The notes under the pieces: model-generated
The model's database searches: none
What the model was told of the DNA's origin: nothing
Seen by the model: the letters and a program-made list of their open reading frames with translations, nothing else
In this document: one piece after another, positions 34,164 through 64,000 of the stretch
Layout of the letters: every line of letters begins with the position of its first letter
How positions within the stretch are numbered: the first letter of the stretch is position 1
NCBI GenBank assembly: GCA_965233585.1
Contig: CBDDTI010000747.1
Location: forward strand, 1,009,513-1,073,512
DNA from: a bacterium
GTDB lineage: Bacteria > SAR324 > NAC60-12
Length of the DNA stretch: 64,000 bases
Reading direction: 5' to 3'
Translations under genes and position numbers: made by a program

Positions 34164-34166
34164 AAA

Positions 34167-43929: not shown

Positions 43930-45912
43930 ATGTATCAAAACGAAAATGAGGGTGAACATGACTATTTATCTTTGTTTGGAAACATTGATATTGAGGAAGT
44001 AGTCAATCAAATTTCTAAATCTTCAAATCAAATCAATCAAATTTTAAGGAGCATGGATAGTCAGAAAAGACCAATTATTTTGAGTTCTCTAATGATTTGT
44101 CTTTTTGAAAAAGAAAATTTACAAAATGATTTTAAAAATCATTTTATGACATTTGCACCAGAGACTATTATCACAAATGTTCCTTTAACACTTGAAAAAG
44201 TTTTAAAGAAAGAGCAAATCCCCCAAGACAAAATTGACATACTCAAAAACCAATTTGATTATGCAATCAAAGATGATATAGATGTTCAGAAAAGTGATCT
44301 TTTAAAAGAAATTTTAAGAGAGCTAGAAGATCATGTCATTCCTCTATTTCAAACAAAGACAAATTATGACATTATTGGAAAGTTTTACGAAGAATTTTTA
44401 AAATATGCTGGTGTGACAAATGTTAAAAATGGCATTGTTTTAACTCCAAGACATATCACAGAATTTTTTACTGATTTAATTGAGATGAAATATAATGATG
44501 TCATTTTTGATCCTTGTTGTGGAACAGGTGCTTTTTTAGTTTCTGGAATGAATAGAATTTTAAACATCATTGAAAACTCTCATTTAACAAACAAACAAAA
44601 CCTTAAAAATCAAGTCAAGGAAAAGCAATTAATAGGTTTTGAAAAAAATCCTACTATGTTTGCCTTATCTATTTCTAATATGCTTTTTAGAGGTGATGGA
44701 AAGGCTCAAATTCACCATATAGATTTTTTTGATGAACAAACAAAAGCTGTTTTAGAAAATAAGAATCCTACAATCGGCTTCATCAACCCACCTTATGGGG
44801 GTCAAGACAATAAGAAAAACCCTACCAAGAAAGAGATTCAATTTTTAGCTAAACTTTTAGATCAATGTAGTCGCTATGTCATCATCATTGCACCACTTTC
44901 TACTTACTTCAAAGAAGACCATTTGAGAAACTCCATTTTAGCAAGACATACACTAAAAGCTGTGATAAATATGCCAAATGAATTATTTCAACCTAATGCT
45001 TCAACTCACACTGCCATTGCTGTTTTTGAAACTCATACTCCTCATTGTCAAAAAGAAGTTTTGTTTTATGACTTAAAAGATAATAGTTTTGTCCTATCCA
45101 AACAGAAAGGAAGAACTGATGTTCTAAACAAATGGAATACTCTCAAAAAATCTTTATTAAGAGAGATTAAAAACCCCAATCAGTACGTAGATGCTACCAG
45201 TTTTTTAAAAACTTCTATACAAGAAAATGATGAATGGATTATTCAATCACATTCAAAAACAGATTACTCACAGCTTAGTGAAAAGCATTTTTTAAACTCA
45301 ATAAGAGAATATGTTATTTTTAAAACTAAAAAGAATTTAAATTTATTAGACAAAGATTTGAATGAATTAGAATTTTTAGAAATTTTACAAAAAAATCATA
45401 TTGACAATCAATCTAAGTTAAAAAGAGAATTACCCAAAGAATTGAAATGTAAAGAATTTGATATTCAAGATGTATTCATTGTTAGAGGTTCAAAAAAAAG
45501 TTTTACACAACATCAAATCGTGACAGGAGAATACGCATATATCACAACCTCTAACAAAAACAATGGATTTTTTGGAACTTCTGATGTCTATACCGAAGAA
45601 GGAAATGTGATTACTTTTGACAGCGCAACTGATGGGAAGTGTTTCTATCAAGAACATGCTTTTGTCGGGTCTGACCATGTAGAAATTTTAGAACCTAAAA
45701 ACTTTGAATTAAATCAATATCTTGGTCTGTATTTCATTACCATACTAAACATGGAATTATTTAGATATTCTTTTGGCAGAAAAAGATCACAAAAAAGAAT
45801 GAAAAAAGATAAAATTTACTTGCCATACATCAAAGAAGGAAATGAAGACGTTCCAGACTTTTGTCGTATGGAAGAATACATCAAATGTTTGCCATACTCA
45901 CAACATCTTTAA
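43930..45912 (+). CDS. N6-adenine DNA methyltransferase fused to an HsdS-like target recognition domain
   Basis: GIVLTPRHI, DPCCGTGAFL motif I, INPPY motif IV; C-terminal YITTSNKNNG...FRYSFGRK TRD-like region. Confidence 0.85.
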   Translation: MYQNENEGEHDYLSLFGNIDIEEVVNQISKSSNQINQILRSMDSQKRPIILSSLMICLFEKENLQNDFKNHFMTFAPETIITNVPLTLEKVLKKEQIPQDKIDILKNQFDYAIKDDIDVQKSDLLKEILRELEDHVIPLFQTKTNYDIIGKFYEEFLKYAGVTNVKNGIVLTPRHITEFFTDLIEMKYNDVIFDPCCGTGAFLVSGMNRILNIIENSHLTNKQNLKNQVKEKQLIGFEKNPTMFALSISNMLFRGDGKAQIHHIDFFDEQTKAVLENKNPTIGFINPPYGGQDNKKNPTKKEIQFLAKLLDQCSRYVIIIAPLSTYFKEDHLRNSILARHTLKAVINMPNELFQPNASTHTAIAVFETHTPHCQKEVLFYDLKDNSFVLSKQKGRTDVLNKWNTLKKSLLREIKNPNQYVDATSFLKTSIQENDEWIIQSHSKTDYSQLSEKHFLNSIREYVIFKTKKNLNLLDKDLNELEFLEILQKNHIDNQSKLKRELPKELKCKEFDIQDVFIVRGSKKSFTQHQIVTGEYAYITTSNKNNGFFGTSDVYTEEGNVITFDSATDGKCFYQEHAFVGSDHVEILEPKNFELNQYLGLYFITILNMELFRYSFGRKRSQKRMKKDKIYLPYIKEGNEDVPDFCRMEEYIKCLPYSQHL

Positions 45913-48621: not shown

Positions 48622-49161
48622 TCAGGCATTGAAATCTTGGTCTATGTAAGACACATCAGGGTCAATACCAAGTGACTGCATCAATCGCAACCACCGTTGT
48701 TGATGTTGAATTTCAAATGCAATATTGTAATCAATATCAGTCAGCCACCATGCTCCTTGCTTGATTTCATCATCAAGTTGGTTTTCTCCCCAACCTGCAT
48801 AACCACACCCAAAATGATACTCTTTGGGTCCTTGATTTTTTAAAATGGCATCTACTACCACTTGCAAGGGGCTTAACGAAAGTTTAGGCGTGATTAAAGC
48901 TGTATTTTCATCGCAAAAATCGTTGGAGTGAAGCGACCAAAAAAAATCAGACTGCACAGGACCGCCAAGCAAGAGTGGAGACTCAATTTTGCAATCAATG
49001 TCTGATTTCAACACGTCTTTAATCAAAAAAGGAGTAGGAATGTTGATGACAAACCCAGATGCTGATTTTTGTGTATAATCACACAGCAAGATAATAGAAT
49101 GCTTAAAATAGCCATCTAAACCGGGCATTGCCACTAATAATGAAGGATTGAATTGTCTCAT
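48622..49161 (-). CDS. YqgE/AlgH-family protein
   Basis: LLVAMP, GGPV, GYAGWGENQLDDEI..GAW. Confidence 0.92.
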   Translation of the reverse strand: MRQFNPSLLVAMPGLDGYFKHSIILLCDYTQKSASGFVINIPTPFLIKDVLKSDIDCKIESPLLLGGPVQSDFFWSLHSNDFCDENTALITPKLSLSPLQVVVDAILKNQGPKEYHFGCGYAGWGENQLDDEIKQGAWWLTDIDYNIAFEIQHQQRWLRLMQSLGIDPDVSYIDQDFNA

Positions 49162-49183
49162 AACTCTTTTGTTTAATCAAACC

Positions 49184-50254
49184 ATGATTCCAAACCATAT
49201 CAGAAAATCAGAAGAAGACAAGGCAAGAATGCAAAAATTTCTGGACGGACTTCTTCAAGGTCGCTCTGACATACTGAACAAAGACCTTGCCAGTGCTTTT
49301 GATGTGGCAATCGCTATCTTGGAATCCGCCAATCAGACACATTTGTTAGCACTCATTGTCATCAGAAGATTCTGGTTTCAGTGTCTCAATGAATTTTTTG
49401 CAAAACATACTTTTGCAAGGAACATCTCTATTACGGCACAATTCATTGTCAATGGAAAGTATTTAGAAAAAACTTTGCCTCTTTTTCAACCTGCATCGCA
49501 AGTGTTCTATGTTCTCAAATCATTGCAAGAGGAGCATTTTGCAAGAGAACATGAATTTGTGATGACTGTACAAAAACGAATCAGAAGCAAATTGACTGAA
49601 TCAGAAAAGGCAAGACTTCTGGAACATGCCGTCTTTAAACCGCATGAAAGGACTTTGCACCTCACGGTGTATGATGGGGGTTTTGCACAGGCAGTGCGTC
49701 AAGACATGAGCATTTATTTAAGTCGGATCAATTCTGTCTTACCTCTTCGTTTACGTATAGACCATTTAGAATGCCAAATCGGCTCTATCCCCACCGTTCA
49801 ATCTGACCAAATCTGGCTTTCTCGTCTTTGTATTCGTTGGCAAGAAGTCGTTCAAACCCCTTTTTTGCTCACTTGTGTCCCTGCATTCATTGACAGAAAG
49901 TCTGACCAAACTGCCTCCTTAGTCATCTATACCCAAGAACTTTTAGATGATTTTCAGACCCTTTCAGGACAACTTTTAAAGCAGATTTTTGCGACATTCC
50001 CCCAACTTCAAAATGTATTTCACAAGGTGTGGTTTCTCCACAGACCTGCCATGAATGTTGCCCAAGAACAAAGACGTGTTCTGCTTTATGCAGAATCTAT
50101 CATCAATCCAAAAGCCTGCTATGAAAAACTACCTGCGGCATGGAAAAGGATTCAAAGAACTCCACCTAAACCCAAACCTTCAGAGCCAAAACTTTCTACC
50201 GAAGAGCAGATTCAAGCCGTTTTTGACAGAGTGTTGAATCGCAACAGTGCTTAG
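49184..50254 (+). CDS. Hypothetical protein, possibly with DUF721/DciA-like domain(s)
   Basis: TLHLTVYDGGFAQAV...YLSRIN pattern; its 3' end is duplicated at 61410..61683. Confidence 0.55.
   Translation: MIPNHIRKSEEDKARMQKFLDGLLQGRSDILNKDLASAFDVAIAILESANQTHLLALIVIRRFWFQCLNEFFAKHTFARNISITAQFIVNGKYLEKTLPLFQPASQVFYVLKSLQEEHFAREHEFVMTVQKRIRSKLTESEKARLLEHAVFKPHERTLHLTVYDGGFAQAVRQDMSIYLSRINSVLPLRLRIDHLECQIGSIPTVQSDQIWLSRLCIRWQEVVQTPFLLTCVPAFIDRKSDQTASLVIYTQELLDDFQTLSGQLLKQIFATFPQLQNVFHKVWFLHRPAMNVAQEQRRVLLYAESIINPKACYEKLPAAWKRIQRTPPKPKPSEPKLSTEEQIQAVFDRVLNRNSA
49978..50254. repeat. Left direct repeat of the island (~275 bp)
   Basis: Near-identical to 61410..61683 (one 3-bp indel and a few substitutions). 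Confidence 0.95.
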
Positions 50255-50325
50255 TTAAATAGAATTTCTGTGTGGACATCGTTTAAGAAATGGGCTGTGT
50301 CATAGACCAGAACAATTTAACAGTC

Positions 50326-51186
50326 TTCTGATTTTAAACTTACAAGTGCCAACTTTTGCCATGTTCACGTTTTTGATGGGGGCGGTTCATTGAGTTGAGA
50401 AGGTGAGACTGGGATTGCCCATCAGCACAGGGTTTTGACGAGAAGCTCCTTTGTCTTTGGTGAGTCCAGAGACTTGTGCATAGACTCGTTTGTAGAGGTG
50501 GTCTACGTCTTGGGGTTCGGGTTGGAGCAGTTCTTGGATGACAAAGTAAGTGAATAAGCGATGCCCCTTTTCCCAATAGGCACTGGAGAACTGATTTTCT
50601 GTGCCTGCCGTCAAGATGACCATCTTCTCTTGGTCAAAGTTGACTTTTTTTGGGGTTTTCATCAGGGGCGCTTTGCCTTTGAAGACGAGCTTGCCGTCTG
50701 TTTTGCCTGTAAAGCAAGAATCTACAAAAGCAATGACTTTAGAGGCTTTGGTGTCTGTGAGTGCTTTGTAGAAGTGAGCCAGTTTAAATTCAGGGTAATC
50801 TTCAACGTAGTCTGGAATGCTGTCTGAAGGGAGGATGTAGGGTTCATCTTTGTTCTCGCCTAGTGGCACACCATGTCCATTGTAATAGAAATAGATGATG
50901 TCGCCTTCTTCCACTTCCTGTTTCAAGAATTTCATTTTGTCTGTGATGAGTCCTCTGGTGGCTTTGTCGTCAGTGAGTAAGATAGTCCTTCCTTCAGTGA
51001 CTCCTTGCTGTTTGACGATGGTTTCAGTGAAGAGTTCCGCAGAACGTTTGGCATAGATGATGTCATCAGCTTGCAGATACTTTTCAATGCCGATAGCAAA
51101 GACCCAAACTTTGGGGTTCTTGTCGGCTTTGGCAAGGTTTTGAAGTTTTGGCAGGAGGTCATCTTGGTATTTAGAGCCGTCTTTGT
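50326..51186. repeat. 861-bp duplication of the caspase domain plus 3' flank (copy of 54119..54979)
   Basis: Constant offset of 3793 bp; identical translation, no DNA differences seen by eye. Confidence 0.95.
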
Positions 51187-51277
51187 GTCTATAAAGAGTT
51201 TCCAATATCGGTGCTGTGCTGCCATATTTATTTTGAACATTGGGATTTGCTCCCCTGTCTAACAAGAATTCCACCAC
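50387..51277 (-). CDS. Caspase-family (peptidase C14) protein with a partial ankyrin N-terminus; may be a fragment
   Basis: FAIGIEKY, YFYYNGHG (His), FVDSCFTG (Cys); starts inside an ankyrin repeat. Confidence 0.75.
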   Translation of the reverse strand: MVEFLLDRGANPNVQNKYGSTAPILETLYRHKDGSKYQDDLLPKLQNLAKADKNPKVWVFAIGIEKYLQADDIIYAKRSAELFTETIVKQQGVTEGRTILLTDDKATRGLITDKMKFLKQEVEEGDIIYFYYNGHGVPLGENKDEPYILPSDSIPDYVEDYPEFKLAHFYKALTDTKASKVIAFVDSCFTGKTDGKLVFKGKAPLMKTPKKVNFDQEKMVILTAGTENQFSSAYWEKGHRLFTYFVIQELLQPEPQDVDHLYKRVYAQVSGLTKDKGASRQNPVLMGNPSLTFSTQ

Positions 51278-51318
51278 TTCCTTAACACCTGCTCTTTGCT
51301 GAAAAGACGGGTTCTTGA

Positions 51319-52758
51319 TTAGTTCAGAGCCATCTTGTTTTCCAACAACTCCACCACTTCCTTGTGTCCCCTCCGACTTGCCAACATCAGTGCTGTGCTG
51401 CCATATTCATTTTGAGCTTCTATCTTCGCTCCCCTGTCTAACAAGAACTCCACCACTTCCTTGTGTCCATTCAGACTTGCCAGAATCAGTGCTGTGTTAC
51501 CATATTCATTTTGAGCCTCTATCTTCGCTCCCCTGTCTAACAAGAACTCCACCACTTCCTTGTGTCCTTGCTGACTTGCCAACATCAGTGCTGTGTCACC
51601 AGATTTATTTTGAGCCTCTATCTTTGCTCCCCTGTCTAACAAGAACTCCACCACTTCCTTGTGTCCTTGCTGACTTGCCAACATCAGTGCTGTTTCACCA
51701 TATTCATCTTGAGCCTCTATCTTTGCTCCCCTGTCTAACAAAGACTTGACCTTGTTCAGATTTCCCTGTTCACTTGCTTTTAGGAGTGTTTGATCATGGG
51801 CGTTTGCTGCTATCTTGTTTTCCAACAACTCCACCACTTCCTTGTGTCCATAAAAACTTGCCCAAATCAGTGCTGTGTTACCAGATTTATCTTGAGCCTC
51901 CATGTTCGCTCCCCTGTCTAACAAGAACTCCACCACTTCCTTGTGTCCCTTCCGACTTGCCCAAATCAGTGCTGTGTTACCATATTCATTTTGAGCCTCT
52001 ATCTTTGCTCCCCTGTCTAACAAGAACTCCACCACTTCCTTGTGTCCCTTCCGACTTGCCCAAATCAGTGCTGTGTTACCATATTCATTTTGAGCCTCTA
52101 TCTTTGCTCCCCTGTCTAACAAGAACTCCACCACTTCCTTGTGTCCATAAAAACTTGCCAACATCAGTGCTGTGTCACCATCTTCATTTTGAGCCTCTAT
52201 CTTTGCTCCCCTGTCTAACAAAGACTTGACCTTGTTCAGATTTCCCTGTTCACTTGCTTTTAGGAGTGTTTGATCATGGGCGTTTGCTGCTATCTTGTTT
52301 TCCAACAACTCCACCACTTCCTTGTGTCCATTCCGACTTGCCCAAATCAGTGCTGTGTTACCATATTCATCTTGAGCCTCTATCTTTGCTCCCCTGTCTA
52401 ACAAGAACTCCACCACTTCCTTGTGTCCATAAAAACTTGCCAACATCAGTGCTGTGTCACCATCTTCATCTTGAGCCTCTATCTTCGCTCCCCTGTCTAA
52501 CAAGAACTCCACCACTTCCTTGTGTCCCTTCCGACTTGCCAACATCAGTGCTGTGTTACCATATTCATTTTGAGCCTCTATCTTCGCTCCCCTGTCTAAC
52601 AAAGACTTGACCTTGTTCAGATTTCCCTGTTCACTTGCTTTTAGGAGTGTTTGATCATGGGCGTTTGCTGCTAGAAATGCTTGAGAACAAGCTATCAAGA
52701 CAGATAAAAAAAGGAGGGATAAGAAAGGAGAGAAGACTTTTGATAAAGTTTTCATCAT
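51319..52758 (-). CDS. Ankyrin-repeat lipoprotein A (3 cap+repeat modules: 3, 4 and 4 repeats)
   Basis: Lipobox-like LIAC; 33-aa/99-bp repeats AQxxxGxTALxxASxxGHKEVVExLLDRGAKIE. Confidence 0.92.
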   Translation of the reverse strand: MMKTLSKVFSPFLSLLFLSVLIACSQAFLAANAHDQTLLKASEQGNLNKVKSLLDRGAKIEAQNEYGNTALMLASRKGHKEVVEFLLDRGAKIEAQDEDGDTALMLASFYGHKEVVEFLLDRGAKIEAQDEYGNTALIWASRNGHKEVVELLENKIAANAHDQTLLKASEQGNLNKVKSLLDRGAKIEAQNEDGDTALMLASFYGHKEVVEFLLDRGAKIEAQNEYGNTALIWASRKGHKEVVEFLLDRGAKIEAQNEYGNTALIWASRKGHKEVVEFLLDRGANMEAQDKSGNTALIWASFYGHKEVVELLENKIAANAHDQTLLKASEQGNLNKVKSLLDRGAKIEAQDEYGETALMLASQQGHKEVVEFLLDRGAKIEAQNKSGDTALMLASQQGHKEVVEFLLDRGAKIEAQNEYGNTALILASLNGHKEVVEFLLDRGAKIEAQNEYGSTALMLASRRGHKEVVELLENKMALN

Positions 52759-52944
52759 GATTTCTTTGGAAAAAGATTAAATCAAAAACAAAGAGACTGA
52801 ATAACATTGGAGACGTGAGTTCTTTTTGCTGAAGCAAGAGTCAGCCCAACCGAATGAGGAGAGTGTAAGCGAACGTCAGCAAAGGTTTGTCTTGACAAGG
52901 TGTCTTTGTCTGAGATGGTCTGGAGTTTGTTTTGAGAAGTTTGT

Positions 52945-54072
52945 TTAAGGTTGAATGCGATAAGTGGTAATTTGGTGGTCGTACTGGTCTAATAATTCCA
53001 AGACATTGAGCAGTTGGTCATTTCCTTTGATGAGAGTCTCTGAAATTTCTTGAAGCTTCAGTTGGAGTTCAGTTGGAGTTTGGAGCAAGATGAGCATTTC
53101 TTTCAAATTGATATTGCTGGTCGCTTCTCCCAAAGAAACTATCAAGTCATCTTCTTCTTTTTCAGGATAAACAAAATCCTGTTCTTCGTAGCGATTTTGA
53201 AAGATAAATCCAACATTGCCCTGATAATCCACAGAAAGTAAAGTGAAGTACATGGGCTGTTGGGTTCGGATACGAACTGTCATTTTGTCTCCATCTCTAA
53301 AAAAAGATGAATTGGTCTCAAAACTTTCAGATTGGTTGGCATCAAACAAATCACTGACTGAAGGCAATCGTAGATCAGTCTCGCCACAGGACAACATGTA
53401 GTATTGATTGTCACGATCAAAAGTCAGTTCCATTGGGAAATTCAAATCTTGAAGTTCTGGGTTCTTTTGCAAGAACACCCCTTTCGGTTTGTTGCCATTG
53501 AGGCACTTGGGGTCTTGACTGAATCTCCGACTCAATCGTTTAAAAAATGGGCTTTTGTCATAGACCAGAACAATTTGATGGTATCCATCGGGAAGTTTTT
53601 GAGCAGCCACTTGACGGAAGTCTCCAAAGAGTTGAGCCTTGGATTTGGTTCCATCTTGCTGGATGATTTCAATCTCGCATTGCATCACCTCTGATTCTTT
53701 GGCGTTACAATTTTCTTGACGTTGACTGATACTCTGCACCTGCACGCCGTTGACAGCTGCTGCAATTTGAACAATGGCATCCTTTCTTGCTTCTTGCCAA
53801 TCATCTCCCAGACCACAGGCAAACACTTCATAAGGTTTAACAGCCACTTCACATGGTAGAGTTTGAAGTGGCTGGGAAGTAGGAGTTTTTGTCTTTGGCT
53901 GCTTGGTTTCAGGCGGAGAGGTTTGTTTGACCTTTTTCAGAACTTCCTGTTTGCTTACCCCGCTGAATGTTGTTGATAGATCAGGAGGTGTTGCCGTTTG
54001 TTGAGAACAAGCATGGAGAACGAAGGACACAGCAACTGCTGAAAGCACAGTGATTTTTTGAATAGTCGTCAT
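52945..54072 (-). CDS. Lipoprotein with LPP20-like N-domain and DUF4384-like C-domain
   Basis: Lipobox LHAC; EARKDAIVQIA helix; FRDGDKMTVRIRTQQPMYFTLLSVDYQGNV..IF. Confidence 0.7.
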   Translation of the reverse strand: MTTIQKITVLSAVAVSFVLHACSQQTATPPDLSTTFSGVSKQEVLKKVKQTSPPETKQPKTKTPTSQPLQTLPCEVAVKPYEVFACGLGDDWQEARKDAIVQIAAAVNGVQVQSISQRQENCNAKESEVMQCEIEIIQQDGTKSKAQLFGDFRQVAAQKLPDGYHQIVLVYDKSPFFKRLSRRFSQDPKCLNGNKPKGVFLQKNPELQDLNFPMELTFDRDNQYYMLSCGETDLRLPSVSDLFDANQSESFETNSSFFRDGDKMTVRIRTQQPMYFTLLSVDYQGNVGFIFQNRYEEQDFVYPEKEEDDLIVSLGEATSNINLKEMLILLQTPTELQLKLQEISETLIKGNDQLLNVLELLDQYDHQITTYRIQP

Positions 54073-54179
54073 CTTGATTGAAAGATGAAACACAGATTCA
54101 CACAAAACATCACATCGTTTCTGATTTTAAACTTACAAGTGCCAACTTTTGCCATGTTCACGTTTTTGATGGGGGCGGT

Positions 54180-57074
54180 TCATTGAGTTGAGAAGGTGAG
54201 ACTGGGATTGCCCATCAGCACAGGGTTTTGACGAGAAGCTCCTTTGTCTTTGGTGAGTCCAGAGACTTGTGCATAGACTCGTTTGTAGAGGTGGTCTACG
54301 TCTTGGGGTTCGGGTTGGAGCAGTTCTTGGATGACAAAGTAAGTGAATAAGCGATGCCCCTTTTCCCAATAGGCACTGGAGAACTGATTTTCTGTGCCTG
54401 CCGTCAAGATGACCATCTTCTCTTGGTCAAAGTTGACTTTTTTTGGGGTTTTCATCAGGGGCGCTTTGCCTTTGAAGACGAGCTTGCCGTCTGTTTTGCC
54501 TGTAAAGCAAGAATCTACAAAAGCAATGACTTTAGAGGCTTTGGTGTCTGTGAGTGCTTTGTAGAAGTGAGCCAGTTTAAATTCAGGGTAATCTTCAACG
54601 TAGTCTGGAATGCTGTCTGAAGGGAGGATGTAGGGTTCATCTTTGTTCTCGCCTAGTGGCACACCATGTCCATTGTAATAGAAATAGATGATGTCGCCTT
54701 CTTCCACTTCCTGTTTCAAGAATTTCATTTTGTCTGTGATGAGTCCTCTGGTGGCTTTGTCGTCAGTGAGTAAGATAGTCCTTCCTTCAGTGACTCCTTG
54801 CTGTTTGACGATGGTTTCAGTGAAGAGTTCCGCAGAACGTTTGGCATAGATGATGTCATCAGCTTGCAGATACTTTTCAATGCCGATAGCAAAGACCCAA
54901 ACTTTGGGGTTCTTGTCGGCTTTGGCAAGGTTTTGAAGTTTTGGCAGGAGGTCATCTTGGTATTTAGAGCCGTCTTTGTAGAAGATTTGATCTACAAGGT
55001 CCACTTTCAGATTGGGATTTTGCAAGGTGAGTTCAGGTAGGTTTTGAATGGTTTCTTGACCTCCCACTGCAGCGACTAAAGCATTGGTTTGTTGATGGGT
55101 TTCATCAGTAGCTTGGGCTTGGAACTGCTGGTCTTGATACTGCAACTTGACTTGTTTGAGTTGCAGGCTGTTGTCATCTGCGATGGCAAATTGTGCCTTC
55201 ACTTTGAAACGTTGAGGGTCTTGGAACAAGGTTTTTCTCAAAGACAGAGAGAGTCCAGAGACTTTAAGAGGTTGTTGATAATCAGATTGAGTGCTTTGGA
55301 GCGTGACAAACATGTCTCCTGTGTCTTTGTTCATTGTGGGTTGCTGTATCTGGAGAGAGGCGATGACATCGTTGGTTGCTTTGGCGACAATGGCTTTCGT
55401 TGGCAAGGCATCAAGATCTTTTTGGTAGGTTTGATAGGCTTTTTTGAGTTTGGTATTGCGGTCTTCTACTAGCTGACGATAGGCCTCTTGGATTTTATCT
55501 ACTTTTGCTTGTCTTTGAGCAGTGATTTGTCGGACACGTGCTTCAAACTCTGTGTTGGTCTCCCATTCGTCTTGTTTCAGTTGTATGGCTTCAGGGACTT
55601 GAGGTTTGGGAATCTGATAGTCTGCGACACGTTGATAGACACTTTTGAGCTTGTTGTGTTGGGATTGGATCAAGCGATTAGCATAAGTGGTGATGGACTC
55701 TAGGGCAGGGGTCTGTTTATTGTGCTTCCAGTCTGAAGTCTGCGATGACAACGACTTCACTGGAAACATCTTGAACGCACTTGTCACCCAAAACACCTGC
55801 TCTTTGCTGAAAAGATGGATTCTTGCTTCATTCAAAGCAATCTCCAACAACTCCACCACTTCCTCGTGATGCCTACTTGATTGACTTGCCAGAATCAGTG
55901 CTGTGTCACCAGCTTCATTTTGAACATTGGGATTCGCTCCCCTGTCTAACAACAACTCCACTACCTCCTTCTGTACTTCCTCACTTGCTATCATCAGCGC
56001 TGTGTTACCATATTCATTTTGAGCCTCTATCTTCGCTCCCCTGTCTAACAAGAACTCCACTACTTCCTTGTGTCCTTGCCGACTTGCCAACATCAGTGCT
56101 GTGTCACCATCTTTATTTTGAGCTTCTACATCAGCTCCGTTTTTTAATAAACTTTTAGCAATTTCTAGTTTTTGATGGCGAATCGCCCAGATAAAAATCG
56201 GTTCATGATTGGCTTTTACTTTGGGATTGGCTCCGTTTGCAAGAAGTGAATTGACTGTTTGCAAATATCCCCTTTTACTTGCTACTACTAAAGCGGTTTC
56301 TCCATGACGATTTTCACTTTCTAAATTGACATCATAGCGAATAAGTTTTTGAACTGCTTTAAAATGTTCCCTTTGAACCAATAGAATGAGCAAGGGATTT
56401 CCATCGTTATCTTGTATTCCTAGTTTGAATTTTGCCCCAAAATCTTCAACAGCAACCATCCATAATGGTTCATGGTCTAGTTGCCTCAAATATCTCAAGG
56501 CTCTTACAGGATTACGATTCACAATCGGTTCAATTTCAAAATCATAATAATCTTGAGCCACTTGATACCACCGAAAGCGACCAGTCACGGATTCATCATG
56601 GTAATAATTTGTGAAAATTTGCAATTTTTCTTCAGTGGTCAACTGATAAGAAGAAAAAGGATCAAGACTTGTTTTCAGAAGAATAAAACGAGTCAGCGTA
56701 TCAAGCACTGGAAAACCAACAAGTTTATATTCTCCAGTCGCTACTTTGAGCCTCAAGTTAGCTGTTCCGTCAATTGAAATCAGTGCATAGTGCTCATTTA
56801 TAGTCCCAAAATAAGGTAGACCCAAAAATGCACTGAGTTGGTAGTAAGTTGAGACACCGCCACTGCCAACCCACCCTCCACTTTCAACTGAATTAGGAGA
56901 GATAGAAATGTCGTTTTTATCCAAGAAGTTAGCAGGAAGGGGTCTGGCTTCAGCAGGCGGATCAGGGATTTCTATTTCGGCTTTCCAAAATCCGATACAG
57001 CTTTGCAACGTTAAGGTCACAACAACCATTAGAAGAACATGGCAGCAAGAAAACAAAGTATTGAAAGATTTCAT
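54180..57074 (-). CDS. Lipoprotein: N-domain, ankyrin repeats, coiled coil, caspase (peptidase C14)
   Basis: Lipobox LQSC; about 6 ankyrin repeats; DEWETNTEFEAR helical segment; NGHG and DSC dyad. Confidence 0.88.
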   Translation of the reverse strand: MKSFNTLFSCCHVLLMVVVTLTLQSCIGFWKAEIEIPDPPAEARPLPANFLDKNDISISPNSVESGGWVGSGGVSTYYQLSAFLGLPYFGTINEHYALISIDGTANLRLKVATGEYKLVGFPVLDTLTRFILLKTSLDPFSSYQLTTEEKLQIFTNYYHDESVTGRFRWYQVAQDYYDFEIEPIVNRNPVRALRYLRQLDHEPLWMVAVEDFGAKFKLGIQDNDGNPLLILLVQREHFKAVQKLIRYDVNLESENRHGETALVVASKRGYLQTVNSLLANGANPKVKANHEPIFIWAIRHQKLEIAKSLLKNGADVEAQNKDGDTALMLASRQGHKEVVEFLLDRGAKIEAQNEYGNTALMIASEEVQKEVVELLLDRGANPNVQNEAGDTALILASQSSRHHEEVVELLEIALNEARIHLFSKEQVFWVTSAFKMFPVKSLSSQTSDWKHNKQTPALESITTYANRLIQSQHNKLKSVYQRVADYQIPKPQVPEAIQLKQDEWETNTEFEARVRQITAQRQAKVDKIQEAYRQLVEDRNTKLKKAYQTYQKDLDALPTKAIVAKATNDVIASLQIQQPTMNKDTGDMFVTLQSTQSDYQQPLKVSGLSLSLRKTLFQDPQRFKVKAQFAIADDNSLQLKQVKLQYQDQQFQAQATDETHQQTNALVAAVGGQETIQNLPELTLQNPNLKVDLVDQIFYKDGSKYQDDLLPKLQNLAKADKNPKVWVFAIGIEKYLQADDIIYAKRSAELFTETIVKQQGVTEGRTILLTDDKATRGLITDKMKFLKQEVEEGDIIYFYYNGHGVPLGENKDEPYILPSDSIPDYVEDYPEFKLAHFYKALTDTKASKVIAFVDSCFTGKTDGKLVFKGKAPLMKTPKKVNFDQEKMVILTAGTENQFSSAYWEKGHRLFTYFVIQELLQPEPQDVDHLYKRVYAQVSGLTKDKGASRQNPVLMGNPSLTFSTQ

Positions 57075-57150
57075 CGTGAATTTTTTGGGAAAAAGATTAA
57101 ATCAAAAACAAAGAGACTCAACAAGAGATTGAATCACAGAAAAAAGCGAT

Positions 57151-57179
57151 AGTCTAATACTAGATAAGAGTGCTGTCAA
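57151..57179 (-). promoter_or_regulatory. Sigma70-like promoter for the ankyrin-caspase gene
   Basis: TTGACA-17 bp-TAGACT on the minus strand. Confidence 0.65.
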
Positions 57180-57354
57180 GTTTTTTTGCAAATTCAAATG
57201 ACTGGCTTGCTTGGAGACGTGAGTTCTTTTTGCTGAAGCAAGAGTCAGTCTGACTGAATGAGTGGAAAGCTTGCAAAAGTGATCCAGAAACAAATTGACT
57301 GAATCAGAAAAGCAAAGGAAACACCTGCTCTTTGCTGAAAAGACGGGTTCTTGA

Positions 57355-59007
57355 TTAGTTCAGAGCCATCTTGTTTTCCAACAACTCCACCACTTCCTTG
57401 TGTCCCCTCCGACTTGCCAACATCAGTGCTGTGCTGCCATATTCATTTTGAGCTTCTATCTTCGCTCCCCTGTCTAACAAGAACTCCACCACTTCCTTGT
57501 GTCCATTCAGACTTGCCAGAATCAGTGCTGTGTTACCATATTCATTTTGAGCCTCTATCTTCGCTCCCCTGTCTAACAAGAACTCCACCACTTCCTTGTG
57601 TCCTTGCTGACTTGCCAACATCAGTGCTGTTTCACCATATTCATCTTGAGCCTCTATCTTCGCTCCCCTGTCTAACAAGAACTCCACCACTTCCTTGTGT
57701 CCTTGCTGACTTGCCAACATCAGTGCTGTTTCACCATATTCATCTTGAGCCTCTATCTTCGCTCCCCTGTCTAACAAGAACTCCACCACTTCCTTGTGTC
57801 CTTGCTGACTTGCCAACATCAGTGCTGTTTCACCAGATTTATTTTGAGCCTCTATCTTTGCTCCCCTGTCTAACAAGAACTCCACCACTTCCTTGTGTCC
57901 CTTCCGACTTGCCAACATCAGTGCTGTGTTACCATATTCATTTTGAGCCTCTATCTTCGCTCCCCTGTCTAACAAAGACTTGACCTTGTTCAGATTTCCC
58001 TGTTCACTTGCTTTTAGGAGTGTTTGATCATGGGCGTTTGCTGCTATCTTGTTTTCCAACAACTCCACCACTTCCTTGTGTCCATTCAGACTTGCCAACA
58101 TCAGTGCTGTGTTACCATATTTATCTTGAGCCTCTATCTTTGCTCCCCTGTCTAACAACAACTCCACCACTTCCTTGTGTCCTTGCTGACTTGCCCAAAT
58201 CAGTTCTGTGTCACCAGATTTATTTTGAGCCTCTATCTTTGCTCCCCTGTCTAACAAGAACTCCACCACTTCCTTGTGTCCCTTCCGACTTGCCAACATC
58301 AGTGCTGTGTCACCATCTTCATCTTGAGCCTCTATCTTCGCTCCCCTGTCTAACAACAACTCCACCACTTCCTTGTGTCCCTTCCGACTTGCCAACATCA
58401 GTGCTGTGTCACCAGATTTATTTTGAGCCTCTATCTTTGCTCCCCTGTCTAACAACAACTCCACCACTTCCTTGTGTCCCTTCCGACTTGCCCAAATCAG
58501 TGCTGTGTCACCACCTTCATCTTGAGCCTCTATCTTCGCTCCCCTGTCTAACAACAACTCCACCACTTCCTTGTGTCCATAAAAACTTGCCAACATCAGT
58601 GCTGTGTTACCATATTCATTTTGAGCCTCTATCTTCGCTCCCCTGTCTAACAACAACTCCACCACTTCCTTGTGTCCATTCCGACTTGCCCAAATCAGTT
58701 CTGTGTTACCATATTCATTTTGAGCCTCTATCTTCGCTCCCCTGTCTAACAACAACTCCACCACTTCCTTGTGTCCCTTCCGACTTGCCAACATCAGTGC
58801 TGTGTTACCATATTCATCTTGAGCCTCTATCTTTGCTCCCCTGTCTAACAAAGACTTGACCTTGTTCAGATTTCCCTGTTCACTTGCTTTTAGGAGTGTT
58901 TGATCATGGGCGTTTGCTGCTAGAAATGCTTGAGAACAAGCTATCAAGACAGATAAAAAAAGGAGGGATAAGAAAGGAGAGAAGACTTTTGATAAAGTTT
59001 TCATCAT
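57355..59007 (-). CDS. Ankyrin-repeat lipoprotein B (2 cap+repeat modules: 8 and 6 repeats)
   Basis: Same signal peptide, cap and C-terminus as 51319..52758, with a different repeat order. Confidence 0.92.
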   Translation of the reverse strand: MMKTLSKVFSPFLSLLFLSVLIACSQAFLAANAHDQTLLKASEQGNLNKVKSLLDRGAKIEAQDEYGNTALMLASRKGHKEVVELLLDRGAKIEAQNEYGNTELIWASRNGHKEVVELLLDRGAKIEAQNEYGNTALMLASFYGHKEVVELLLDRGAKIEAQDEGGDTALIWASRKGHKEVVELLLDRGAKIEAQNKSGDTALMLASRKGHKEVVELLLDRGAKIEAQDEDGDTALMLASRKGHKEVVEFLLDRGAKIEAQNKSGDTELIWASQQGHKEVVELLLDRGAKIEAQDKYGNTALMLASLNGHKEVVELLENKIAANAHDQTLLKASEQGNLNKVKSLLDRGAKIEAQNEYGNTALMLASRKGHKEVVEFLLDRGAKIEAQNKSGETALMLASQQGHKEVVEFLLDRGAKIEAQDEYGETALMLASQQGHKEVVEFLLDRGAKIEAQDEYGETALMLASQQGHKEVVEFLLDRGAKIEAQNEYGNTALILASLNGHKEVVEFLLDRGAKIEAQNEYGSTALMLASRRGHKEVVELLENKMALN

Positions 59008-59068
59008 GATTTCTTTGGAAAAAGATTAAATCAAAAACAAAGAGACTGAATAACAGAAGAAAAGCAAG

Positions 59069-59097
59069 AGCCTAATACTAGATAAGAGTGCTGTCAA
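59069..59097 (-). promoter_or_regulatory. Sigma70-like promoter for ankyrin lipoprotein B (paralogous to 57151..57179)
   Basis: TTGACA-17 bp-TAGGCT with an identical spacer. Confidence 0.6.
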
Positions 59098-59372
59098 GTT
59101 TTTTTGCAAATTCAAATGGCTTGATTGGAGACGTGAATTTTTTATGGAAATTTTAATATAGGCAAGAGTTGAGGTGCCAAAATTAACTTTTTTCTGGTCA
59201 AAATGAATTTTGACTTGCAAGAAAGTTAGAAGTTGGCTACAATGCTGGGTTTGTATCTCACAACTTGATTGAAAAGTTGTGAACTGGGGTCTTCGCACTG
59301 GTCTAAACAGGCTGTCAGGTGCTTGGTGAGGCTCTGTTTTTATGTTAATCTTTTTTCATCATTTAAATCAAA

Positions 59373-59966
59373 ATGAAAACTATTCAAAAAATTGCTGTTT
59401 TTTCAGCAGCTACCATGTCCTTTGCCCTCCATGCTTGTTCTCAACAAACAGCTCCTGCCCCTGCTCCTGCTGAGGCAATCAATCCAGAACCCGAATGGAT
59501 CTCAAACGTGCCTGATGACAGCGATGGTAAGAAGTTTTTTATTGGACAATCTAGCATTCGTGCCAATCGGCAAAGTGCGCGTAACGATGCTAGAGCCAAT
59601 GCCAGAGTACAGATGGTAGAAGAAATGGGGGCTCTTGTGAAAAGCAAGCTGGAGGAAGCGAAGCAGTCTTTTGGCAGATCCAGCGAGGTCATTGACCCTA
59701 TCACAGCGACACGTCAATTTCAGCAGCAATTTTCTGCTGGTCAAGTGAGGGGTTCTAAAGTTCAAAAATACTACGATACTCAGGAGGAAGGCTCTAGAGG
59801 AAAAAAAGGTTGGGTCTCTCATGTGTTGGTGAGTGTTCCTGTAGATTCTTTGAATGCCGCCTTTCAAGAGCTTTCTGAACAAAAGTATGAGCAAGCCATG
59901 AAAGACGAACAAGCAAATGCAGCAGAGTTCTGGGGTAATTTGAAGAAGCAAGGGTTTATAGAATAA
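59373..59966 (+). CDS. LPP20-like lipoprotein
   Basis: Lipobox LHAC; PEWI; FFIGQS; ARNDARANARVQM. Confidence 0.75.
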   Translation: MKTIQKIAVFSAATMSFALHACSQQTAPAPAPAEAINPEPEWISNVPDDSDGKKFFIGQSSIRANRQSARNDARANARVQMVEEMGALVKSKLEEAKQSFGRSSEVIDPITATRQFQQQFSAGQVRGSKVQKYYDTQEEGSRGKKGWVSHVLVSVPVDSLNAAFQELSEQKYEQAMKDEQANAAEFWGNLKKQGFIE

Positions 59967-59990
59967 TTCCCAGTCTGACTCATCGCTTTT

Positions 59991-61310
59991 GTGGGGAAGG
60001 ATGTTTGGGTTTTCACCTTTGGGAATCACCGAATTCTTGACTTTCCAATGGGGATTCCCTTCCCCAGGTCCCAAAAATGGCTCTTTACGTTTGCACTGTT
60101 GTATATCTGCTTTATGGTCCTTTTGCGTCTGAACCTCCTCTGTCAATTTAAAGTCTTGAAGGTCATAGTGGTCAGGTGTTGTACTGGCTTGTATTTATTG
60201 GTTGGAGGCTGTAGTCAATCCTATCCTCTCATAGAACCAAGCCTGTCTGAAAAGCCGGACTGGATCCATCATCCACCCGAACAGCAAAACATCTCTCATC
60301 TTGTAGGAATCTCAGATGAGTTTCACTCACAAGAAAGCGAAGCCAGACTTCAAGCCAGAAACCATGCCACAATAGAGTTTTTGCAAGAATGCGGGCTTTC
60401 TGTGAAGTATGGCGTAGAAGAATATGGATTTTCTTCAGGGTCACGTTCAGAGGTGATTGATGAAAGGCTGAAGGCTTATGAAGAAAGGTTTCTACATACT
60501 GAGGGAGTGGTTCAAAGGCTTAAACATGAGGCAAGCTATACTGAAAAAAAGACAGAGCAACCAAACAAAACTCTTCCCATCAAGGTTACATACAAAGTTT
60601 GGAGACTCTTTAGCATCTCAAAAGATGAATGCGATAGAATTGAAGAAGAAACCCGTACCAAACATCAGGCAATCAGAGACAACTTGAACCAGATGGTAGC
60701 CAACGCACAACAGCTGGCAGCTGAGGGAAACCTCCATGATGCTCTTAAAAAATTCAAAGAGTTAGAACTGGAGGTTCAAAAGTTCAAGTGGCTGGATGTC
60801 ACCTCCATCAGGAATGAGGCTGGTCAATTAGAAAGCACTTGGTTGAATAGCTTTTCCCTAAAAGTGAAGCCAGAAAAACAAATTTTAACTCTCAACCAAC
60901 ATCTTAAAGCCTTTCAGATTCAGGTTTTTTTTCAAACTAATACTCAGACTAGCCCCACTCCTGCAACCTCTTTTCCTCTCAAAATCAAGATGTTACAGGG
61001 GAGTTGGAGACCTATTGCCTCAACATTGAGTGACCAGCAAGGAATTTCAAAATTTGATCTTAACCAAACTGTCGGGCAACCCATCTCTTTCAAAGCACCT
61101 ACGACCTTGAGTCTCATCATTCAGCCTAATATTGCAAACAGCAACATCAGTAGCTATGCAAAACAGACTTTGCTCCAGAAACAAGTCTCCCACCAAATCA
61201 TTGTTCAAAAACATTTTTCTCCTGAACCTTTTCTTGACAGTGCAACAGGCGTCCATTTGAACCTGAACTCTCACAAAGCTCTTTTCAACAAGGACAGTCA
61301 GTTCAAGTGA
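59991..61310 (+). CDS. LPP20-like lipoprotein (true start probably ~60150-60170; C-terminus possibly truncated)
   Basis: LLVGGC lipobox, KPDWI, LVGIS, EARLQARNHA. Confidence 0.65.
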   Translation: MGKDVWVFTFGNHRILDFPMGIPFPRSQKWLFTFALLYICFMVLLRLNLLCQFKVLKVIVVRCCTGLYLLVGGCSQSYPLIEPSLSEKPDWIHHPPEQQNISHLVGISDEFHSQESEARLQARNHATIEFLQECGLSVKYGVEEYGFSSGSRSEVIDERLKAYEERFLHTEGVVQRLKHEASYTEKKTEQPNKTLPIKVTYKVWRLFSISKDECDRIEEETRTKHQAIRDNLNQMVANAQQLAAEGNLHDALKKFKELELEVQKFKWLDVTSIRNEAGQLESTWLNSFSLKVKPEKQILTLNQHLKAFQIQVFFQTNTQTSPTPATSFPLKIKMLQGSWRPIASTLSDQQGISKFDLNQTVGQPISFKAPTTLSLIIQPNIANSNISSYAKQTLLQKQVSHQIIVQKHFSPEPFLDSATGVHLNLNSHKALFNKDSQFK

Positions 61311-61409: not shown

Positions 61410-61683
61410 AAAGCAGATTTTTGCGACATTCCCCCAACTTCAAAATGTATTTCACAAGGTGTGGTTTCTCCACAGACCTGCCATGAATGTTGCCCAAGAA
61501 CAAAGACGTGTTCTGCTTTATGCAGAATCTATCAATCCAAAAGCCTGCTATGAAAAGCTACCTGCAGCATGGAAAAGGATTCAAAGAACCCCGCCTAAAC
61601 CCAAATCTTCAGAGCCAAAACTTTCTACTGATGAGCAGATTCAAGCCGTTTTTGACAGAGTGTTGAATCGCAACAGTGCTTAG
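61410..61683. repeat. Right direct repeat of the island; duplicated 3' end of gene 49184..50254
   Basis: Translates to KQIFATFPQL...VLNRNSA*, matching the left copy. Confidence 0.95.
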
Positions 61684-63568
61684 CAGTCAAGAACTCTAAT
61701 GCTTTTTGGAGTTGAATGTCTTGACCTTGTTGAATGCTTTCAATGGTGTCATCAATCCAAATATCTGGAAGAACACCCTGACCTTCATAAAGCTCGCCTG
61801 TCTTTTGAAACGAGGCGATTCTTGAGGCTTTAAAAACGTAGCCAGAATTTGGGAGTTTAAAAACATTGGCAAAACCACTGCCCCCAGAACTTGCAACCCC
61901 TATCAATTTGACGCAAGGTAACCCTTTGAATGCCCCTAAAAAAATGTCAGTCGCACTAAAATTACGTTCATTCATCAAAATCACCAATGGTGCGTCATAC
62001 CTTTTATCAACGTTTGGACTCACGACTGTCAAATGCAACTTTGAAAACTCTCCTTTTGGCAAATCCCATTTCAAAGCATGAGTTGCCAACCATTCGTCTA
62101 TGGCTTGACGTTCGTCTATCTTCCAAATTTTAGACTTTCTGGGGTGTAAAAAACGACTTTGCAATCCGTAGCTTTCATTCACATTGGGGTCTTTATCTGC
62201 ATCTATTCGCAATGCGGCAATGTTGATGACTTGAGGTTGATTGAGAAAATAAGCAAGCAACTTCAAAGTAGGTTGACGGCTTCCACCTCCATTGTCTCTT
62301 ACATCAATAATAAGTCCTTTTGTGCTTTGAAAAGATGACATGGCTTCATCTAATTTCTCCAAAAATTCATTACTCTTACCCATCTTGGACATCTTCAAAT
62401 ACCCGATATTCTGAGACATCACTTGGTAAGAAATAGAATCTTCAGAATGATTGCCAGATAAATTGTCAGATAAATCATTATTTTTGTCAAATATAGTTGT
62501 TTTTTCTTCCTTCTTTGCATTTGTAAAAACCACTTGGATTTGGTCTTGAACGATACCTTGTTCTCTACGTGTGATTTGCAAAAATGGAGGAATCCAACGA
62601 GTAACAGATTTTCTTAACCCTTTAGAACCTTTGGCTCTGTAAAATCCTGTTTGTTGCTGAAGTTTTTGGACAGAAAGCCCATCAATGGATTTTAAGAAAG
62701 GAAAATCAGAATGATAGAATTTTCTTGTTGAAGACAACGCAACAACCTTTCCTCCTATTTCCTTAAGGTCAAAAGGAAGTGAAACACGGGGAATGTCTAT
62801 GTTTTTTTGCAAAAAACGATAACTTAAAGTTGTATGTCCATCTCCAAAAAGTGCCAGAAACTTCCTAACCTGAAGCCCAAAGTCTCCCTTATGGATTCCT
62901 GCCCCTAAACTATTTCTTATCGTATCCAATGCGTTTTGATAGTCCACATGACGCAACTTGAGATAAGCAAAATGATTGACTAAATTGGTTTCTAACGTAT
63001 CAAGGTCTTCTTTGGATTGCTTGGCAGAAAGCCAAACGTCCTGATTTTCCAATTCTTCAGAAGTAGGGAAGCCATAGAGTCTAGTTGTCAGGTGTGCAAA
63101 ACGGGGGTCACTTAAAGTGCTGTGAGGTCTTGAAACTTGTCTTGCTTGTCTTAAGTGATTCAGTAAAATTTGTTTTTTATCCAAAGTACTGTGAAGTTTG
63201 ACAACCTGATTATCTTGGAGGTCTTTCAATGTGAGTTCTACATCAAAAAAATTATATTTTCCAAACAAACTTATGACAGCAGTGGTGTCTCCAATTATTC
63301 TTTTTTTCCAATAAAATCCGTAAGTGTCTTTTGAAACTTGCTTGATCTCTTCCAAACCAACTCCTTCTATTTCTAGGAGTTGATACCAACGTCCTTGAAG
63401 TTTCACATGCAGTGCATCATGCTTTGTCCATCTGATATTTTCAAATGGGCTTTTATCGCCAATTCCGTCCAGATGATACAAACTTTGACACGCTACAAAA
63501 AAGAAAGGCGTCACGATAAAAACCAGAGACTTCCAAATGGAATGTCCCCATCTTGTGTTGCTCTTCAT
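61625..63568 (-). CDS. S41-family (tail-specific) protease, putative lipoprotein
   Basis: FFVAC lipobox; IGYLKM, LIIDVRDNGGG, NFSATDIF, GVLPDI. Confidence 0.88.
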   Translation of the reverse strand: MKSNTRWGHSIWKSLVFIVTPFFFVACQSLYHLDGIGDKSPFENIRWTKHDALHVKLQGRWYQLLEIEGVGLEEIKQVSKDTYGFYWKKRIIGDTTAVISLFGKYNFFDVELTLKDLQDNQVVKLHSTLDKKQILLNHLRQARQVSRPHSTLSDPRFAHLTTRLYGFPTSEELENQDVWLSAKQSKEDLDTLETNLVNHFAYLKLRHVDYQNALDTIRNSLGAGIHKGDFGLQVRKFLALFGDGHTTLSYRFLQKNIDIPRVSLPFDLKEIGGKVVALSSTRKFYHSDFPFLKSIDGLSVQKLQQQTGFYRAKGSKGLRKSVTRWIPPFLQITRREQGIVQDQIQVVFTNAKKEEKTTIFDKNNDLSDNLSGNHSEDSISYQVMSQNIGYLKMSKMGKSNEFLEKLDEAMSSFQSTKGLIIDVRDNGGGSRQPTLKLLAYFLNQPQVINIAALRIDADKDPNVNESYGLQSRFLHPRKSKIWKIDERQAIDEWLATHALKWDLPKGEFSKLHLTVVSPNVDKRYDAPLVILMNERNFSATDIFLGAFKGLPCVKLIGVASSGGSGFANVFKLPNSGYVFKASRIASFQKTGELYEGQGVLPDIWIDDTIESIQQGQDIQLQKALEFLTAKHCCDSTLCQKRLESAHQ

Positions 63569-63780
63569 TTCATTTCCAAAAAATTGAATCTATCAAAAAT
63601 GTTCAGTCTATCACAAATGCAAAAACCACTGTCAAACAAAGTCAGGGTTTAGTAGCCTTTTCATCTGACGACAAAATAGATAGAATGTTCCTTTTTCAAA
63701 TCAAATTTTTGGTATTGTTAAACTATAAGTGATATGCGATATTAAGTTCATTTAATTGAATTGATAGTCATGGTGTAGCA

Positions 63781-64000
63781 ATGAAGTCGTGTCCTAGATG
63801 TGAAAGTGAGAAGACGGTTAAGAATGGTTTCTTATATGGTAAACCGAGGAGGCGTTGCAATGCCTGCAACTATCAATATACCAAGTCCTATCGTGGTCAA
63901 ATCTCACCACAGATCAAAAGAAGAGCATTAGAGTTGTATTTGGAGGGTCTTGGTTTCAGGTCAATCGGTCGTTTGCTGAATTGTTCTCATGTTTCAGTTT
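63781..64000 (+). mobile_element. IS1-family transposase, N-terminal part (runs off the window)
   Basis: MKSCPRCES..TVKNG...RRCNACNYQY zinc ribbon followed by ALELYLEGLGFRSIGRLL HTH. Confidence 0.85.

Follow-up and report, generated by a model that had tools for sequence, protein, structure and literature searches.

The closest described relatives of the protease considered here are the C14B peptidases (metacaspases, MALT1, Geobacter GSU0716 and the cyanobacterial orthocaspases), with which it has in common the caspase fold and the His-Gly and Asp-Ser-Cys dyad motifs. To our knowledge, the bacterial caspase-like proteases studied so far act in the cytoplasm. Here we describe an island of about 11 kb in a SAR324 genome (NCBI GenBank assembly GCA_965233585.1, contig CBDDTI010000747.1, positions 1,009,513 to 1,073,512; this stretch of 64,000 nucleotides is called “the window” below) that encodes a caspase with a predicted export signal (Casp1), a partner protein joining an LPP20-like domain to a DUF4384 domain, and two ankyrin-repeat proteins (AnkA and AnkB), along with a second caspase copy (Casp2) and two further proteins with LPP20-like parts (LPP and G7; Table 1). 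Judged from homologous loci, the conserved system is an exported-type caspase with a swappable N-terminus together with one LPP20-DUF4384 partner, and the ankyrin arrays are a lineage-specific elaboration of the caspase N-terminus, not a separate conserved receptor class.

Compared with the C14B peptidases, the Casp1 family adds an export signal, a long helical stalk and a dedicated partner gene, and it has Ser at the helix-1 S1 position. An acidic S1 pocket for Arg or Lys is formed by Asp95 and Asp211 in TbMCA2 and by Asp365, Asp462 and Glu500 in MALT1 (PMC4357240, cited, like the other sources marked “in part,” for the available portion of its text). MALT1 has an Ig domain alongside its caspase; in our case the Ig-like DUF4384 sits in the partner, a likeness that we take as an analogy only. 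The proteases found beside bacterial gasdermins are also caspase-like and fused to a repeat domain, one thought to couple ligand recognition to cleavage (10.1101/2021.06.07.447441, in part), but theirs are leucine-rich (LRR), tetratricopeptide (TPR) or WD40 repeats, whereas the window has ankyrin repeats, export signals and the LPP20-DUF4384 partner. No recurring gasdermin-like neighbor was found in 81 clustered loci and no PADLOC gasdermin match in 10 proteins; no genome-wide gasdermin profile search was made.

For the arrays, the ankyrin, TPR and WD repeats of fungal NOD-like receptors (NLRs) are alike in high internal identity, in ankyrin variation on the concave face and in recombination within and between loci (PMC4986451, in part). 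Fungal NLRs have NACHT or NB-ARC domains and a polymorphism of repeat number between strains (same source, in part), whereas the system in the window is bacterial, predicted to be extracytoplasmic and read from one genome; no NACHT or NB-ARC Pfam match was found in the island proteins or among the best five families listed for each of 79 related caspases. The original prediction had likened the arrays to variable lymphocyte receptors; as analogies go, the concerted-evolution repeats of fungal NLRs are the closer one. Designed ankyrin repeat proteins (DARPins) have, as the arrays do, a fixed framework, capped blocks in series and the same variable positions, but AnkA and AnkB are natural, bear a lipoprotein-type signal and hold only 2-5 residues per position.

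The LPP20-like N-domain of the partner resembles the LPP20/SHS2-fold envelope proteins (Lpp20, FlgP, FlgT, HP1454), which include ring-forming envelope scaffolds (PMC12222027, in part); the partner differs in its DUF4384 fusion and in its link to a caspase, and ring formation in that fold needs an insert (same source, in part). Polymorphic toxins have a variable C-terminus behind a constant N-terminus and an immunity gene; the present family reverses this, with a constant C-terminus and a varying N-terminus, and we do not place it among them.

Conservation of the Caspase and Its Partner

A search with residues 440-964 of Casp1 found 68 relatives, whose N-termini vary on a common stalk and caspase and include ankyrin, WD40, Lcl_C, Sel1/TPR, PDZ-S41, rotamase and FGE domains (79 locus proteins were scanned against Pfam, best five families each). 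The loci fetched (79 from genomes, 80 from metagenomes and 1 viral) come from Campylobacterota, Vibrionaceae, Shewanella, Spirochaetota, Desulfoluna and others. When the neighbors in 81 loci were clustered, a single companion dominated: the homologue of the partner gene at 52945-54072, present in 57 loci. A profile of this partner matched in 53/79 genome loci (a circular count, since the profile was built from those loci) and in 54/80 metagenome loci (partly redundant with the genome set), in both cases mostly in the next gene. At the level of whole genomes (where kin are not independent and some matches may be among the aligned sequences), both genes were found in the same 7/201 genomes of the Sulfurimonas class (Campylobacteria), adjacent in all 7 and with neither gene in 194; in the same 6/201 Vibrionaceae; and in the same 3/88 genomes of this phylum, in which 3 more match the partner N-domain only. 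The Campylobacteria count includes, among the 7, the Sulfurimonas genome on which it was centered, and one genome has a second, partial partner match without a listed caspase.

The neighborhood survey that the original prediction had proposed as a check is in this respect favorable to it: the caspase does travel with an LPP20-DUF4384 gene. The full set first proposed, of ankyrin, C14, LPP20 and DUF4384 genes, does not recur, as an ankyrin match was present in only 6/161 related loci (3 of these fused to the caspase) and the extra LPP20-like genes, LPP and G7, had matches in 3 and 0 of 161 loci, respectively, at E<=1e-3. An MltC-type transglycosylase was the only other frequent neighbor (16/161 loci). 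No published description of the caspase and LPP20-DUF4384 pair was found in listings and the beginnings of abstracts (subscription papers and supplements were outside the scope), and the available portions of PMC10907252 and PMC4933709 do not describe it.

Several Vibrio and Photobacterium loci (L030, L033, L043, L045 and L048) hold an operon of caspase, unknown gene, partner, MltC-type transglycosylase, LPP20 and a gene with an ETEC_3214 domain; that of L033 adds two ankyrin-bearing genes, one with LPP20.

As to what such a pair might do, we put a little less than even confidence in an envelope sensor-protease, in which ligand binding would cluster and activate the caspase and the arrays would be repeat donors or co-receptors. 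The assortment of N-termini would also suit a display-and-shed carrier, in which stalk and caspase form a C-terminal anchoring and self-processing unit for many kinds of exported passenger. The partner would dock onto this unit or set it off, release or transfer of the passenger would fall to the caspase, and the ankyrins would be adhesin passengers and not triggers. The passengers do include enzymes (PDZ-S41, rotamase) besides binders, and one partner may face several caspases (up to 8, in a genome with one full-length partner). Further, there are toxins and large surface proteins in which a caspase-like domain is the autoprocessing peptidase (PMC3482391, in part), and GPI transamidase and the gingipains have the same fold as our caspase model (Z 15.5 and 10.2, respectively). 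A carrier nevertheless seems unlikely to us, given that caspases of ~290-450 aa with short N-termini exist and that the motif QNPNL, which precedes the caspase, is kept in only ~44-53/82 rows, weak for an obligatory cut site.

Caspase, Partner and Predicted Export

His803 and Cys856 are invariant in 82/82 aligned relatives, as is Asp854. In a model of the stalk and caspase (pLDDT 89, pTM 0.79), helices of 29 and 49 residues are followed by a beta domain and then by the caspase, whose closest folds are metacaspase 4 (Z 21.7, root-mean-square deviation 3.0, 224 aligned), MALT1 (Z 21.0, deviation 2.9, 212 aligned) and GSU0716 (Z 20.5). With a His/Cys dyad in a modeled caspase fold, Casp1 is a Peptidase C14 member, and the ankyrin-coiled-coil-caspase with an intact dyad that had been read from the DNA stands. 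Pfam matched ankyrin repeats in AnkA, AnkB and Casp1, and Peptidase_C14 in Casp2 (E 1e-11, above cut-off); the latter was not listed for Casp1, despite 861 identical bp. PADLOC and NCBIfam caspase models match Casp1 at 724-937, and the scans against these two collections gave generic domain matches only, below cut-off where one is given. Ser747 aligns with the metacaspase helix-1 S1 Asp, and Ser is found there in 78/82 rows (sequence alignment); because Ser replaces Asp at this position, the P1 preference may differ from that of metacaspases.

The Casp1 stalk and residues 27-215 had no usable match in atlas searches; HMMER gave a single weak match to 27-215 (E 1.6e-5) among 1.84 billion representatives. 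In a quick version of the caspase tree, the four nearest caspases (P0001, P0002, P0003 and P0005; clade support 99) all have fused ankyrins. Two of them, P0001 and P0002, are paralogues that are almost identical but bear different arrays, and P0005, as Casp2, has no stalk. The signal-less second caspase copy, also seen at the outset, is an exact match of 861 bp (50326-51186 on the Casp2 side, 54119-54979 on the Casp1 side) that is backed by contigs from sequencing runs (see below). The idea of Casp2 as a ready recombination acceptor for AnkA is not favored, there being no exact match of at least 25 nt between the two.

The DUF4384 match of the partner lies above the Pfam cut-off (E 2e-8). That the island has three LPP20-like proteins, as originally claimed, holds by transitive homology and not by any direct match above cut-off. 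Relatives of the partner match LPP20 (PF02169) at up to 7e-7 (1/4 scanned passes the cut-off and 2 more fall below it), LPP matches the partner profile at E 5.5e-5, and G7 matches LPP at E 5.5e-8 and the partner profile at E 9e-4 (probability 23%). In the Pfam scan of the window proteins no island protein was above the PF02169 cut-off, LPP reaching E 0.004, below it. The partner model (pTM 0.69) has an alpha/beta N-domain and an Ig-like C-domain and no Foldseek match at E<=0.001; the N-domain has a weak Foldseek match to HP1454 (E 0.07, probability 0.91), and DUF4384 matches Ig-like folds at Z 7-8, a value often reached, in a comparison that barely covered the LPP20 part.

Export and lipobox calls were made by eye and by our own hydrophobicity rule, not by SignalP. 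By this rule, N-termini are export-like in 119/134 caspases, 91/102 partners and 248/665 other open reading frames (ORFs), and under half of the export-like caspase and partner starts are lipobox-type. The lipobox-type signals that had been assigned to all full-length island genes are canonical in AnkA and AnkB, where they end in LIAC24; the lipobox-like ends are non-canonical in Casp1 (LQSC26) and in the partner and LPP (LHAC22; our rule scored LPP “none”), and G7 has one (VGGC19, likewise non-canonical) only with a start at TTG 60156. A lipid anchor is not universal, since a lipobox Cys is absent from the closest relatives (P0001-P0003).

The Ankyrin Arrays

AnkA (11 repeats) and AnkB (14 repeats) proved to be what had been predicted, two pure ankyrin arrays with variable binding positions. 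Their 25 repeats comprise 19 distinct units, which vary at ankyrin positions 1, 2, 3, 5, 9, 10, 13 and 14 on a framework that is nearly frozen, including at synonymous sites. DARPins are randomized at positions 2, 3, 5, 13, 14 and 33, a numbering that agrees with the alignment to a solved DARPin (PDB 5le2). All four codons with at least 3 residues fall among these six (P 0.0014), and pN, the non-synonymous value, is 0.294 in the six against a synonymous value (pS) of 0.024 in the other 18 codons. Position 10, too, faces the binding surface (PMC3308923, in part). The internal identity of the arrays is high and their variation falls on the binding face, as in the NLR-type hypervariable repeats, and of 29 control arrays (those that could be scored among the 120 best ankyrin matches) only 1 is as homogeneous as AnkA and AnkB (0.74 and 0.78). 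The repeat shuffling that had been suggested is supported by the four-gamete test, failed by 28/105 informative site pairs, which indicates recombination. The Casp1 repeats share in-frame exact stretches of up to 62 nt with each array.

Both arrays stop where Casp1 reads on, after which 33 nt still match Casp1, and leader DNA is common to all three genes. AnkA and AnkB are likely stop-truncated duplicates of an ankyrin-caspase gene, and they likely trade repeats with the ankyrin part of Casp1. This derivation, read from the DNA, and the 277-bp flanking direct repeat described below are additions to the original prediction.

The same DNA could instead mean that the pair is real but that the arrays, Casp2 and the extra lipoproteins are idle by-products of recombination in an unstable, repeat-rich island. 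The exact 861-bp copy, the frame break between AnkA and Casp2, the 42-bp partner remnant and the stop common to both arrays would all fit, the 33 other copies of an insertion sequence (IS)-like end in the genome point to instability, and the extra genes do not recur. We find this improbable, however, as the 25 repeats are all in frame over 3.1 kb, with intact signals and shared leaders, and of their extra alleles, which fall almost wholly at binding positions, 18 are non-synonymous and 3 synonymous. Caspase-less N-terminal paralogues also recur in other loci, where 11/88 related caspases have such a paralogue of their own N-terminus, mostly Lcl_C (two rows are the same locus).

Ankyrins are immunity proteins in some polymorphic toxin systems (PMC3482391, in part) and a designed ankyrin protein inhibits caspase-2 (PMC8229355, in part), so that AnkA and AnkB might be thought of as inhibitors or immunity proteins restraining either the cell's own exported caspase or that of a rival. 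Such a role would be very improbable for arrays that appear to descend from the caspase's own N-terminus, in a family in which 155/161 related loci have no ankyrin match.

Among the 120 best ankyrin matches, 14 (P0069, P0072, P0075, P0078, P0094 and nine others) carry a Pfam caspase of a different subfamily, many of them apparently without the His-Gly and Asp-x-Cys motifs in a pattern search; these may be exported ankyrin pseudo-caspases.

The Island and Its Assembly

The island lies near the end of a 1.07-Mb contig and has seven ORFs between 50255 and 61409, the five from Casp2 to AnkB on the minus strand and the last two on the plus strand.

Table 1. Features of the island, in window positions.
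Feature	Position	Strand	Basis or remark
Left copy of the 277-bp direct repeat, the 3' end of core gene 49148-50254	49978..50254	+	Gene in 24/24 same-family genomes
Remnant, 42 bp, of a second partner gene	50278..50318	-	39/42 identical to 53535-53576
Casp2: signal-less ORF, partial ankyrin repeat and exact caspase-domain copy	50387..51277	-	Out of frame with AnkA
AnkA: predicted lipoprotein, 11 near-identical ankyrin repeats in 3 capped blocks (3+4+4)	51319..52758	-	ORF and Pfam
Partner: LPP20-like N-domain, helical middle, Ig-like DUF4384 C-domain; predicted lipoprotein	52945..54072	-	Start = ATG at 54072 (ORF to 54105)
Casp1: signal, orphan domain 27-215, ankyrin repeats, long helical stalk, beta domain, C14 caspase fold	54180..57074	-	His803/Cys856
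Casp1 leader, with pieces common to AnkA and AnkB	57080..57262	-	Sigma-70-like site 57179-57151 (10/12)
AnkB: AnkA paralogue, 14 repeats in 2 capped blocks (8+6), same signal and same stop	57355..59007	-	ORF and Pfam
LPP: LPP20-like predicted lipoprotein	59373..59966	+	Signal DNA 76% like the partner's
G7: N-terminus weakly LPP20-like, remainder orphan	60156..61310	+	Start uncertain; ORF from 59991
Right copy of the direct repeat	61410..61683	+	3-bp deletion, 7 substitutions

The two copies of the flanking direct repeat are 267/277 identical. The core gene that contributes the left copy encodes 368 aa, has no Pfam or NCBIfam match, is single copy in 24/24 same-family genomes and present in 0/16 of the sister family, and is divergently oriented from an AlgH-like gene in 14/14 fetched loci. 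Because it occurs only once in the 24 same-family genomes, we read the region as an insertion or duplication-bounded island. There is no integrase among the seven ORFs (ORF list and Pfam), despite the flanking repeat, and we do not class the region as an integrase-mobilized island. Promoter and terminator counts in the region were not above chance (20 vs. 13.6 +/- 4.6), and the same holds for sigma-70-like sites.

Read support was taken from the contigs of four public runs (X1-X4), which represent at most two samples of one study, are short and are possibly the assembly's own source. An assembly artefact was ruled out for the caspase duplicate and its flanks, because the run contigs break at both of its ends (54119 and 54979), the depth of the duplicate is about double in two runs (X3, 18 vs. 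7-11; X4, 9.9 vs. 3-5) and both Casp2 junction contigs are present, with 30 letters on the short side of each and one of them below the tool's bridging rule. In X2 the depth was 4.9 vs. 2.5-4.1, and in X1 it was not doubled. This support covers the caspase duplicate and its flanks, the repeat order inside the arrays being beyond the reach of such short contigs. All read differences listed trace to other island copies and say nothing on strains, and no excision joint was listed in the four runs. No RNA run carrying the region was listed either.

Directly outside the island lies an S41 peptidase gene with a lipobox-like start (61625-63568), which is not beside the core gene in the short loci of 14 relatives. 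A probable IS, a repeat element with 33 further near-identical loci that all fall on five large contigs, has its end at the close of the window (63700-64000).

Genome Context

Besides five large coding-dense contigs (~2.9 Mb), the bin has ~9 Mb in contigs of mostly low coding density, on which histone genes are clustered in tandem (C7, C488); by sequence content, it mixes the bacterium with eukaryotic DNA. A second family of ankyrin proteins, most of which bear signal peptides, is encoded at C747:766797-771622, C745:254104-255588 and C746:199893-200621, with a shared framework, variable binding positions and no linked caspase. Elsewhere in the window, a low-GC gene that fuses an N6-methyltransferase to a specificity domain (restriction-modification type) is inserted among housekeeping genes at 43930-45912, and a region of low GC (~29-30%) at 31000-36000 holds the start of dnaE, a SPOR-type gene, a glycosyltransferase and an amidase-like gene (names by eye).

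A host-directed role in this lineage would make the arrays surface or vesicle-borne binders of host proteins and have the caspase cut host targets. The low-coding histone contigs indicate that the bacterium was sampled with a eukaryote, the second ankyrin family would be in keeping with such a role, and ankyrins are enriched in symbionts (PMC4986451, in part; see also PMC6372511 and 10.1101/608950). Co-binned eukaryotic DNA, however, does not show symbiosis; no secretion route beyond Sec and lipoprotein export is linked to the island; and the core pair is a common one among environmental genomes (Sulfurimonas, Desulfoluna and others), where its N-termini are not ankyrin. We hold a host-directed role to be quite unlikely.

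Proposed Mechanism and Its Meaning

The anatomy of the genes, the catalytic dyad, the coupling of the two genes, the swapped N-termini and the pattern of repeat variation are direct observations, and the sensor-protease that we propose builds on them as follows. The caspase and its LPP20-DUF4384 partner would be a two-gene module working in the cell envelope. Binding of a target to the ankyrin repeats at the N-terminus would come first; caspase domains, gathered by the helical stalk and the partner, would then become active, by analogy with MALT1 and the initiator caspases, which are activated by dimerization (PMC4357240, in part). Several caspases that differ in their N-termini likely share one partner. 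A stop codon and duplication in the same ankyrin-caspase gene likely gave rise to AnkA and AnkB, which would be both a reservoir of binding repeats that recombine with those of the caspase and multivalent co-receptors.

Several findings weigh against this proposal. At the level of the family, LPP and G7 are seldom linked to related caspases, and standalone ankyrin genes are rare beside them (3/161). There is no recurring substrate gene in the 81 clustered loci, in keeping with the original remark that no substrate was visible. Only 1 relative was found in viral contigs, PADLOC matches are to generic domains only, and some N-termini are enzymes (S41 protease, rotamase), which fit a carrier better than a sensor. 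In the window itself, the partner is without the family's conserved Trp and first Gly, and the two remnants at the left end of the island (Casp2 and the partner fragment) suggest turnover or decay. As for the repeats, pS within the six variable codons is 0.147, so that the ratio there is only 2, in repeats that are not independent; old divergent repeats kept via gene conversion would look similar; and the bias toward DARPin positions is partly generic, being seen in all 29/29 control arrays.

The sensor-protease has a stronger form, which we think doubtful, in which the arrays amount to a library of natural DARPins coupled to a caspase in the envelope: repeats shuffled in AnkA and AnkB and copied onto the caspase sensor would continually change the triggers to which a population responds by proteolysis at the cell surface, with the partner as a shared activation platform.

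Taken together, the locus represents a real and undescribed envelope caspase-partner module, its export being predicted, combined with a lineage-specific natural ankyrin library. The family, with its predicted export signals and fixed partner, is present in cultured Photobacterium, Vibrio, Shewanella and Desulfoluna, so that its function is open to knockout and to a catalytic mutant. What the window adds is a library of natural repeats, linked to that protease, which varies where engineers randomize DARPins. If exchange of repeats and ligand-triggered cleavage both hold true, the system would be a receptor-protease of the bacterial surface that diversifies; if the library reading is true as well, it would be a recombination-based receptor repertoire outside the cytoplasm.

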